In this document: positions 39,001-42,000 of the stretch, in pieces | Numbering within the stretch: position 1 is the stretch's first letter | How the letters are laid out: each line of letters opens with the position of its first letter | Virus record (IMG/VR): IMGVR_UViG_2529293223_000014 | DNA: 48,078 bases | Source of the DNA: a virus | Taxonomy: Duplodnaviria; Heunggongvirae; Uroviricota; Caudoviricetes | Direction: 5' to 3' (one strand) | Made by a program: the position numbers

Positions 39001-42000
39001 ACTGAAAGCCGGATGTGCAGACCTGCTGTTTGACAATATCATGGAACTAACCAGTTCAGCGTTACGTGGCTGCATTATCGCGCCAACAGGTAAAAAACTG
39101 GTGGTAAGTGACTTGTCGAACATTGAAGGCCGTATGCTGGCATGGCTGGCGGGAGAAGAATGGAAACTGAATGCATTCAGAGAGTACGACGCCGGAACGG
39201 GTCCGGACTTATATAAACTGGCGTATGCAAAAGCTTACGGAATTGAAGTTGAGCGCGTCACCAAAGACCAGCGCCAGATAGGTAAAGTGCTGGAATTGGC
39301 TTGCATAGCTCCGGATACTTTAGTGCTCACCGATAAAGGCTATAAGCCGCTTGTTAGTATTTCGGGCGCGGATTTGTTATGGGACGGAGAAGAATGGGTA
39401 AAACACGAAGGACTGATTTACAGGGGGTACAAAGCCTTAATATCACTGGACGGAGCAAAAATGACCCCGGATCACCAGGTGCTAACCCCTACTGGATGGA
39501 AGCTGGCAAACCTTATCGCTTTAAACAAAAATACGCTTCACCAAAGCCTGGAACTTGCTTCGGAGAACTTACCGTTATCAAAGAACTGGAAAAAGTACCC
39601 GGAAAAGACCGAAGGATACTTGTCAAATGCAAATGTGGTGCAATGCCTCACACCGCAACAATCAGCAATCTCCTTAAAGGAAAAAGTACCCGATGTAACA
39701 TTTGCGCAAAGAAAAAGCATAACGAGTATCGTAAAAAATTCTTATGCTATGCGGATGCTATTGCAGATGACGAAACCCGTCGCAGGCTACTTAACCGATT
39801 GTCTGCCGCAATCAGCCGTTGCCATAAACCCACCAACAGGTTGTTTCACAACTACGGCGGTCGGGGGATCTACGTTTGTCAGCTATGGCAGGAAGATAAA
39901 AGAGCTTTTTTGCTACACGTCAGGGAAATCAAAGGGTTTAATGACCCAAAGTTGGAAATGGATCGCATCGACAATAACAAAGGCTACGAACCGGGTAATA
40001 TCCAGTTCGTCTCCAAAGCAGACAATAACCGCAACAGAAGAAAAATCGCAGACCTGCAAAAACGTATCGACGAGCTGGAGCGATGTTTACGACATTGCAC
40101 ATGCGGGGCCTCGAAACAGATTCACGATTAAAACCGACTCAGGACATTTAATCGTTCACAACTGCGGGTACGGTGGTGGTGTGTCGGCCTTCATCACTTT
40201 TGCACTGGTTTACAGTCTCGATCTCGACGAGCTGGCGAACGCCGCACTGCCAAACATTCCCCGCGATGTTATCCGCGAGGCGAAAAGCTGGTACTACGAA
40301 TCGGTTAAACGTAAGTCAACCTACGGCCTTTCTGAACGGGTATTTATCGCCTGCGACTCACTTAAACGTCTCTGGCGCAGGGCGCACCCGGCGACCTGCG
40401 ATTTCTGGTACGAACTGGAGCGCACCGTCCGCACTGCAATCGCCACACCGCAAAAAACATTGTATTGCGGTTATCTTAAAATCCGCCGCGATGGCGCGTG
40501 GCTGCGCATACAGCTACCATCCGGACGCGCTGTATGCTACCCGTCTCCGGTTATCGAAAAAGGGAATATCACCTATATGGGTGTTAACTCTTATTCGCGT
40601 AAATGGCAACGACTCAAAACCTACGGCGGAAAGCTGGTGGAGAACGTCACCCAGGCGGCCGCCCGCGACGTTCTGGCCGGAAACATGCCGCTTATCGAAG
40701 ATGCCGGTTACAGCATTGTGCTGACGGTACACGATGAAATTATAAGTGAGGCCCCTGACTCACCCGATTACTCAGCAGAACATGTCAGCCAGTTACTGGC
40801 AACCGTTCCTGACTGGGCCACGAGCATTCCACTAAACGCCGGAGGATTCGAATCTTACAGATACCGGAAAGATTGACATCCGCGATGACCAATAGGTATA
40901 TTCCGCTTCATGGTGCTGAACACACCACAGCAAGCGGAAACCGCGCCCGTCAGTCATGCGGATTTTTTATGTCCATTTTCAGATATGGTCGGGTAGCGCG
41001 TATACCGAAAAACAGCCGAAAGGCTAAGGATACGGGCCGACTTGCTGCGGTGTTCAAGTACCCGACCGCCCTGCTACCCCGATATTGACTCATCACCCCC
41101 TTCCGGTTTATGCTCACCGAATCTCCCAAATGGAGATCGGGATTTGCAACCCGGAATTGTTAGGGGCGACACCAGACGCGCCAGCGTCTTTTTTATTGTC
41201 GCAAGCTTTGCCACGTTCGCATTATGGCGGGCTGGCGGGGGCGCTTCGGCGCGCCGGTTTCCTCTAACGCCGGTATTGCAAACCTCGTCAGTTCGCCACC
41301 CATATGAGATTTGCAACTCAGTGGTGGCGGTGAATTTCACCGTTAGAGGTAACTGTGATGGCAGCTCAACTCATCCCCGTTTTCAACGGCGCTATCGCCA
41401 ACGAAATCACCCTGCTCTGCAATGCTCGCGATCTGCACGCATTCCTTGGGGTAGGGAAAGTGTTTGCAGCATGGATTACATCACGAATTGCAGACTATAA
41501 ATTCGTTGAAAATCAGGATTATATCGTAACGTTTTCCAAAACTGGAAAGCGTAAAAATGTTCTTTGTAAGGACTACCACCTCACCCTCGATACAGCCAAA
41601 GAACTGGCGATGGTCGAGCGTAACGAAAAAGGTCGCCAGATACGCCGATACTTCATCGAATGCGAACGCAAACTGCACCAGCAGTCCTCCACGATACTGG
41701 CGCCGCACAGGGAGTGCCTGCCGAAGATGGTTTACCATCACCAGAGCAAATACAACCCGTACAGAGCCTACGCATGGAACGGAGAGAAAAGCGTTTACGT
41801 AGGGTGTTATCCATCCGTGGATGAGGCTGTCGCTGCCCAGGAACGCTTCTACCGGAATGGCAGCACGAAATGCATTCAGAAAGCACAGACCGGAATCAGT
41901 GACGCAGAAAAGGAAATGTTCATCAACAATCTCCGCGCCGTCTGTCATAACTTCCGACGTATTAATGAAATCTGGCGAGCGCAGTTAATGCCTGCTCTCG

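Follow-up and report, generated by a model that had tools for sequence, protein, structure and literature searches.

Inteins are usually taught as a single polypeptide that combines splicing and endonuclease domains, and in canonical HNH-containing inteins the intein polypeptide includes the nuclease. Under the 'splicing-first' model, free-standing endonuclease genes invaded mini-inteins, a process for which few living intermediates have been available so far. Here we analysed a 48,078-nucleotide stretch of Caudoviricetes DNA (IMG/VR record IMGVR_UViG_2529293223_000014; the window), an Escherichia coli prophage region in which a family-A DNA polymerase gene carries a predicted intein in motif B and the −1 frame of the polymerase contains a nuclease open reading frame (ORF) flanked by the splicing blocks. 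We judge it likely that the locus encodes a functional class 1 motif-B intein together with an overprinted, independently translated HNH-like nuclease gene. The nuclease shares with canonical HNH inteins its position in the intein, its presumed homing role and its occurrence in phage replication genes, but it has its own stop and apparently its own start, and no in-frame relative was found.

Gosselin, Arsenault and Gogarten (bioRxiv, 2025) described actinophage inteins with non-canonical endonucleases, among them, in the terminases of Gordonia phages, an EndoVII-like ORF located 'in reading frame 3 relative to the intein'; they termed the arrangement previously unreported and extremely rare, and proposed that free-standing endonuclease genes had invaded inteins. 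The initial annotation of the window was aware of no such description, a claim overturned by this preprint, which reports a same-strand, out-of-frame intein endonuclease, albeit with an unrelated nuclease, intein and host gene. Both systems have a complete intein whose splicing blocks enclose a same-strand endonuclease ORF in the −1 frame (also the frame we obtained on translating the Keitabear terminase intein), and an extein frame that stays open through the ORF without a recognisable fold. The published element differs in its T4 EndoVII-like nuclease, its terminase extein and its restriction to a few closely related actinophages, whereas in the window family the ORF start sits within the N-terminal splicing domain. 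Homology between the two nucleases was rejected, as tblastn of the window ORF against the Keitabear terminase intein gave no meaningful match (E = 1.8, wrong strand).

The ShiLan domain (Arsenault et al., Genes 2025, PMC11855218), an HNH encoded out of frame within a mycobacteriophage DNA methylase and with its mode of translation left as an open question, likewise combines a hidden alternative-frame HNH ORF, a stop-free host frame and a homing-like distribution. It has no splicing domains and the insert is thought to be retained in the protein, whereas the window insert is flanked by a complete intein expected to excise it. Fractured genes, in which a free-standing endonuclease gene lies between the halves of a split intein (Dassa et al. 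2009, PMC2677866), resemble the window in partnering intein halves with a separately translated endonuclease gene at the usual place of the endonuclease domain. There the host gene lies in two ORFs, splicing is in trans and the nuclease is VSR-like (as cited in the Gosselin et al. preprint); at the window polymerase locus the host gene is not broken into two ORFs, splicing would be in cis and the nuclease is HNH-like.

A homologous unit lies in the polymerase precursor of a Jerseyvirus, Salmonella phage vB_SenS-Ent1 (gp37, HE775250), where a nuclease ORF ~52% identical to that of the window occupies the −1 frame of the coding sequence and the insertion is four codons further upstream in motif B (GK/A-C...HN/CELGLGYEGG; slashes mark splice junctions). 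That record annotates the intein as 'encoding splicing domains' only and does not mention the nested ORF, and our literature search found no description of a nested ORF in Jerseyvirus-type polymerase inteins. An arrangement of this kind has thus become known only recently, and what appears to be new is the present family, together with its size, age and start-site anatomy.

An intein in polymerase motif B and the ORF nested within it

The polymerase is encoded on the forward strand, as are the intein and the nested gene with their parts, by one uninterrupted ORF of 975 codons (37949–40876; PF00476, E = 5e-13), for which RefSeq gives a start at ATG 38042, whereas the length of intein-less homologs agrees with TTG 37949. 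The predicted intein occupies 39302–40162 (287 codons) in the polymerase frame, with Cys1 at 39302, the terminal His-Asn at 40157–40162 and Cys+1 at 40163, and both an ORF listing and an alignment with DNA polymerase I agree with this initial placement. After removal of the intein, the N-extein (37949–39301; 3′–5′ exonuclease and palm to the middle of motif B, assigned by PF00476 and alignment) meets the C-extein (40163–40876; the Cys+1 nucleophile, CGYGGG..., the remaining motif B and motif C) opposite RQLAKAINFG/LIYG of DNA polymerase I, which places the insertion inside motif B, in the O-helix.

For comparison, we used 80 viral contigs fetched with the nuclease alignment, together with cultured phages; 42 loci had close nuclease homologs, of which 30 were non-redundant at <90% identity (the 30 relatives). 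The N-terminal splicing domain (39302–39577) comprises block A (CIAPDT), the motif LWDGEEW, block B and a helix extending to ...LELASENLP; Cys1 is unchanged in 30/30 relatives, and T55 and H58 of the block B TxxH (TPDH, 39464–39475) are invariant. The C-terminal splicing domain (40064–40162), supported by frame-specific conservation, contains blocks F and G and ends in LIVHN (...LIVHN/C, 40148–40165; HN/C or HN/S in relatives). An AlphaFold model gave a per-residue confidence score (pLDDT) of ~90 for residues 1–92 and 255–287 (N-domain, 81–92), and a Foldseek search with this model returned the Ssp DnaB, Spl DnaX, Mtu RecA, gp41-1 and Npu DnaE inteins, all at probability 1.0. A profile of the two half-domains matched the Spl DnaX mini-intein (E = 9e-5); scores of Pfam and TIGR intein models for the polymerase-frame intein fell under their cut-offs. 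The insert, defined by its splicing blocks (Cys1...TPDH...His-Asn) and predicted fold, is a putative class 1 intein with a Hint fold, and protein splicing would release the intact polymerase; cultured lytic phages reliant on this polymerase have the same unit. The polymerase-frame intein also matched PHROG 93 ('endonuclease'), which probably reflects intein-containing members within PHROG 93.

Between the splicing domains, the polymerase frame continues as a linker (39578–40063), a +1 read-through of the nuclease gene that is stop-free, unconserved and predicted to be disordered. Its centre matched nothing in Pfam, PHROG and NCBIfam profile searches, and the earlier impression that it is protein-unlike is reinforced by a pLDDT of ~28 for residues 93–254, against ~90 in the flanks. 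The nested gene was delimited from its ORF, PHROG matches, conservation and start signals as 39394–40131, in the −1 frame, encoding 245 amino acids; an alternative in-frame ATG at 39379 would extend it to 250 amino acids (39379–40131). Its TAA stop (40129–40131) lies inside intein block F, 10 codons in. The product contains a Zn-ribbon (CxCG...CxxC), a helix (RRRLLNRL), a YGGRGI module and a ββα-like motif, DRID...N...N, which reads (E/D)xDR(I/V)D...GY.PGN..F....N..N.R across the family with its Asn residues conserved. PHROG 374, 2081 and 3377, all annotated 'HNH endonuclease', matched the −1 ORF at E = 5e-37 to 7e-22, with PHROG 374 at E = 4.7e-37 over residues 57–223.

The arrangement recurs far beyond the window. 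The insert is present at 99.8–100% identity in four complete E. coli genomes, with identical sequence in independent complete genomes from France and Thailand, and RefSeq generally annotates a single 'DNA polymerase' coding sequence spanning it. The exception is E. coli VL40 (L002), in which an extra A in an A-run (equivalent to 39619) breaks both the polymerase and nuclease frames and the locus is recorded as two pseudogene fragments; this could be true decay or a sequencing error in the homopolymer. At only ~33% identity, three metagenomic relatives of the polymerase-frame intein have the splicing blocks, the −1 nuclease ORF and both frames open. A search with the −1-frame protein recovered 1,085 proteins, and among the best ~120, mostly ORFs of 240–257 amino acids, the first ~50 residues and the final ~20 correspond to intein blocks translated in the −1 frame, so these come from the same arrangement. 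Among cultured phages, tblastn matches to the ORF fell within the 'intein-containing DNA polymerase precursor' of Jerseyviruses of Salmonella (SE2, Ent1–3 and many others), and of Pseudomonas phage MR14, Vibrio phage 97.13 and E. coli fPoEco01. The spread amounts to 30 or more divergent lineages and over 150 cultured enterobacterial phages, at several insertion sites. At 42/42 loci with close homologs, the nuclease ORF lies in the −1 frame of a 750–1,250-amino-acid ORF whose insert is bounded by C1...TxDH...W and VYD..AGPRNRF...VHN/(C or S); the polymerase frame of one contig, L027, is broken. A nested-ORF variant ~70 amino acids longer (304–334 amino acids; L034, L036, P0083, P0084, P0097 and P0117) has an extra N-terminal Cys-rich module, and the polymerase frame remains open throughout the longer insert as well.

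A chimeric query joining the N-terminal splicing domain, nuclease and C-terminal splicing domain in one frame found no genuine in-frame relative among 5.8 billion protein clusters. All hits spanned the nuclease part alone besides P0086 and P0129, both of which we rejected: the contig behind P0086 (L090) has its polymerase split over three frames, unlike its normal sister contig L091, and P0129 has a frameshift within the nuclease motif.

Selection on two frames at once

From approximately 39379 to 40131, both frames remain open. When the codons of the window −1 ORF were shuffled synonymously, the polymerase frame was stop-free in 0.1% of shuffles (P0 = 0.001; mean 3.9 stops), the same order as the chance probability first estimated for the double-open insert. 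Synonymous shuffles of each nuclease ORF predicted a mean of 0.5–4.9 polymerase-frame stops and none was seen in 30/30 relatives, for a joint log10 P of about −52 with sequences treated as independent, which they are not. Free-standing homologs provide a natural null control: in ~35 more distant homologs of this kind, the corresponding frame is open for just 18–89 codons, with the exceptions of L051 and L069.

Conservation changes frame twice across the intein. At 39302–39510, mean pairwise amino acid identity was 0.33–0.55 in the polymerase frame and 0.19–0.29 in the −1 frame, the latter indistinguishable from the unused +1 frame. At 39572–40080 it was 0.31–0.69 in the −1 frame, and the polymerase frame (0.17–0.34) was the one indistinguishable from the unused +1 frame (0.12–0.32). 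At 40082–40162 the values were 0.49–0.70 (polymerase), 0.17–0.36 (−1) and 0.19–0.31 (+1). Conservation leaves the polymerase frame for the −1 frame at 39512–39570 and returns at ~40080, in line with the switch points of ~39540 and ~40085 first proposed. Substitutions between closely related pairs (80–99.5% identity; 33/35 among Jerseyvirus-type sequences) have a matching periodicity: polymerase codon position 3 holds 71% and 77% of substitutions in the N- and C-terminal splicing domains, respectively, and in the centre polymerase position 2, equivalent to the wobble position of the nuclease, holds 58%. Stop counts, frame-specific identity and substitution periodicity together show that the nuclease gene is under purifying selection and that the centre of the polymerase frame is selected only for staying open. 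The initial proposal of a nested, out-of-frame gene with selection for a translatable precursor is thus upheld by the 30 relatives, the free-standing null control and the periodicity.

Identity and probable translation of the nested nuclease

In the first third of the intein, ahead of alignment column 85, the 30 relatives have 52 stops in the −1 frame against 55.5 expected, and after column 89 it is stop-free in 30/30 (joint log10 P of about −19). Just ahead of this boundary, at column 85, the Trp of LWDGEEW coincides with a −1-frame start codon in 29/30 relatives, 21 of them ATG, corresponding to ATG 39394 in the window; the lone exception has an ATG two codons later, and a sequence with a late −1-frame stop has one at column 93. 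Codon choice before the two Trp codons is skewed towards A-ending codons (20/30 against 5.5 expected, z 7.8; 22/30 against 11.2, z 4.7; expectations derived from extein codon usage), including rare CTA, TTA and GTA codons in genomes of 60–67% G+C. A Shine–Dalgarno (SD)-like GGAG (39386–39389; anti-SD duplex −6.6 kcal/mol), supplied by the Gly-Glu codons of LWDGEEW, precedes ATG 39394, and pairing of −6.4 kcal/mol or stronger occurs upstream of the start in 27/30 relatives versus 8.5% of background positions. A conserved start codon, an SD-like element and a −1 frame that is stop-free from the start onward make it most likely, on these sequence grounds, that the nuclease has its own initiation site within the N-terminal domain of the intein.

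Such a start would give the nuclease a disordered, unconserved leader of ~50 residues. The overlap concerned (39394–39528), read in −1 across the intein N-domain, has 0 stops in alignment columns 90–149 in 30/30 relatives, identity at background level and predicted disorder, with residues 1–34 of the nuclease model at pLDDT <50. Free-standing homologs start 5–20 residues ahead of the G.RFG.LTV motif. ATG 39496, in the Trp codon beside the nuclease domain, was rejected as a start, as it has no codon-choice enrichment (z = 1.1) and a weak SD.

Several observations weigh against this account of the nuclease and its expression. The spacing from the SD-like element to ATG 39394 is short (4 nucleotides), and the conserved Asp-Gly-Glu-Glu codons could have produced the element incidentally. 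The upstream ATG 39379 (column 80), which has a weak SD, is the more strongly selected of the two (z = 7.8), and 5/30 relatives have a stop between the two ATGs, 3–4 codons on, creating a tiny ORF before the main start. No sigma-70 promoter was found inside 38900–40300, so initiation would compete with ribosomes elongating in the polymerase frame. As to the nuclease itself, no Pfam HNH family matched any of 26 family members at E ≤ 1, an NCBIfam search of the nuclease frame gave no match, a PDB sequence search yielded only Zn-ribbon-like noise and no solved structure, a Foldseek search with the nuclease model matched nothing, and structural comparison with HNH enzymes produced a weak match only. 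The first His of the H-N-H catalytic triad is replaced by an invariant Arg (D195 R196, in DRID) in both nested and free-standing members. The 'convincing HNH' of the initial annotation therefore holds as far as PHROG 374 is concerned and falls short with respect to Pfam and the first catalytic His; the canonical label is only partly verified, and the nuclease is best termed HNH-like.

Mobility, alternative explanations and wider context

The intein is polymorphic and appears to have been acquired by recombination. Of 139 E. coli genomes matched by the query, 4 have the intein and 135 have the flanking extein only, and three phage records also lack it. Compared with intein-less reference alleles (E. 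coli IAI1 and phage vB_EcoM-689R2), the spliced window gene is 92–93% identical overall and mostly 92–100% within 540 nucleotides of the junction, except in two tracts abutting the insertion, with 63% identity upstream (39242–39301) and 83–90% downstream (40163 to ~40222). Where these tracts changed the window protein, the intein-less allele reads VDKHM..GKVMELG/LGY. Divergent flanking tracts of this kind are the hallmark of co-conversion as an element is taken up from a diverged donor. Around the junction, the IAI1 intein-less motif-B allele is CGGTAAAGTCATGGAACTCGGT/CTGGGTTATGG, from which the candidate cleavage target would be CGTCAGATCGGTAAAGTCATGGAACTCGGT/CTGGGTTATGGTGGTGGT.

Related intein-plus-ORF units occupy at least three polymerase sites, GKVxELA/C (window type), GKT/C (four codons upstream) and GGKLxEN/C, as well as unrelated exteins, so the unit has moved between sites with its frame relationship kept, and the nuclease family is widespread and patchy in phages, often with several copies per genome. 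Two contigs, L005 and L006, carry this same unit of intein and −1 ORF in a non-polymerase extein (...NRPRE/C ... HN/CYTLARALCWESIDW). The 857-amino-acid partial polymerase ORF of L044 has two inteins of the window family, at GKV/C and GGKLAEN/C, and of these only the latter yielded a nested ORF in the core-motif search.

We propose that the place usually taken by an in-frame endonuclease domain is filled by a separate −1-frame gene for an HNH-like nuclease of the type that is free-standing in phages. Ribosomes in the polymerase frame would cross this gene and produce a disordered, stop-free linker of ~160 residues, on either side of which the two Hint half-domains would still come together, splice and free an intact polymerase. 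The 245-amino-acid nuclease would be translated independently from the same mRNA, starting at ATG 39394 with 39379 as a second ATG; both ATGs are formed at the Trp codons of LWDGEEW, whose purine-rich codons also provide the SD-like GGAG. The nuclease may then cut intein-less polymerase alleles near motif B, and recombinational repair would copy the intein and nuclease gene together, the intein rendering the insertion harmless to the phage.

Own initiation and programmed frameshifting were both entertained when the locus was first annotated, and the evidence separates them. Ribosomes in the polymerase frame might be fed into the nuclease frame by −1 frameshifting at T_TTA_AAC (39520–39526), a classical X_XXY_YYZ heptamer in phase and just ahead of the nuclease homology; the product would be a polymerase-N/intein-N/HNH fusion or, with a second return shift, a canonical in-frame intein. 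We consider this very unlikely. In-phase heptamers occur in only 8/30 relatives (columns 60–152), unrelated and scattered, and T_TTA_AAC is not conserved, so that it was rejected as a conserved signal; 6 such heptamers fall in the window polymerase ORF by chance, folding of the 90 nucleotides downstream is no better than that of shuffles (z = −0.47), and no return-shift signal is evident. Moreover, the −1 frame is open and its start codon selected ~45 codons upstream of the heptamer, neither of which a shift there would require. The conserved start and SD-like element instead favour initiation.

It is still less probable that the −1 ORF is the decaying relic of an in-frame endonuclease knocked out of frame, with the polymerase frame alone under selection. 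Broken variants do exist, namely VL40 (+A at 39619), L027 (polymerase frame) and the frameshifted fusions P0129 and P0086, but the ORF is intact in 30/30 non-redundant relatives with column identity of 0.31–0.69, substitutions among cultured phages cluster at the nuclease wobble position, the nuclease start signals are under selection, and the search of 5.8 billion clusters yielded no genuine in-frame relative. That two compensating indels mask an ordinary in-frame HNH intein, the refutation initially envisaged, has a negligible chance of being correct; beyond the a-priori oddity of the locus, it could appeal only to the one assembly with a homopolymer +A (VL40), and it is contradicted by identical sequence in the independent French and Thai genomes and by a layout conserved in divergent metagenomic and cultured-phage sequences at 33–50% protein identity. 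The most probable of the rivals, although we regard it as unlikely, is that the nested protein is expressed without being a homing endonuclease, acting instead as a DNA-binding or regulatory protein, or as a domesticated nuclease with a role in phage replication or competition, while the intein spreads by ordinary recombination. The Arg in place of the canonical catalytic His throughout the family, the lack of a Pfam HNH match and the weak structural match to HNH enzymes are in its favour. However, the family behaves like homing endonuclease genes in its widespread, patchy and often multicopy distribution, the unit occupies the usual location of an intein endonuclease, the intein is polymorphic for presence and flanked by a co-conversion tract, and several insertion sites and exteins are used. 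An overprinted and independently translated HNH-like gene within a functional intein remains the reading that we favour.

A second nested family was encountered on contig L025 (5485–6045; the same contig as L094), where an intein at TYGGKL/C...VHN/CENATQ contains a different HNH-like ORF in the +1 frame. The ~40 closest viral-contig relatives of this ORF (L094–L136) all sit within long polymerase ORFs, in the +1 frame, at a site with the motif TYGGKL/C...IVHN/C(EN)xxQAxARD, and more distant relatives are free-standing. Several polymerases bear both −1-type and +1-type inteins; in the window, the site of the second family is uninterrupted (40625–40669).

The polymerase gene of the window is also bracketed by repeated elements. 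Two copies of the Rfam small RNA (sRNA) sRNA-Xcc1 flank it (36982–37068 and 40987–41075), and the Hfq-binding RNA isrK and the C4 antisense RNA lie just downstream (41121–41194; 41220–41303), all matching above Rfam gathering cut-offs. A direct repeat of a ~100-nucleotide upstream leader (36857–36964 versus 40872–40976, 93–100% identical) brackets the gene, as does a 300-nucleotide direct repeat (37444–37743 versus 41681–41980, 88%) inside two paralogous BRO-N/antirepressor genes (36944–37882 and 41355–42119). In intein-less relatives, a TIR-domain gene directly follows the polymerase (3279–4040 in L092, E. coli IAI1; 3480–4241 in L093), a position occupied in the window by the sRNA/antirepressor module.

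Taken more broadly, we lean towards the view that mini-inteins and free-standing-type HNH-like genes are partners in an old and stable dual-coding arrangement, common among the family-A polymerases of phages, with −1 and +1 lineages (the latter at GGKL/xENxxQAxARD) and with LWDGEEW doubling as ribosome-binding site and nuclease start codon. As no in-frame relatives were found, the out-of-frame state would be the maintained condition, and not a transient step towards a fused intein. The nested gene has been overlooked by annotation pipelines, and the polymerase-frame 'junk' that it leaves illustrates how intein splicing may tolerate arbitrary inserts. Two frames are measurably under selection at once. 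As the family has members in genetically tractable E. coli and Salmonella phages, its start site, splicing across a nonsense linker of 160 residues, nuclease target and homing are directly testable. Its hundreds of sequences, at multiple sites and in multiple exteins, suggest that an intermediate of the kind expected from the invasion of mini-inteins by free-standing endonuclease genes can be long-lived and successful.

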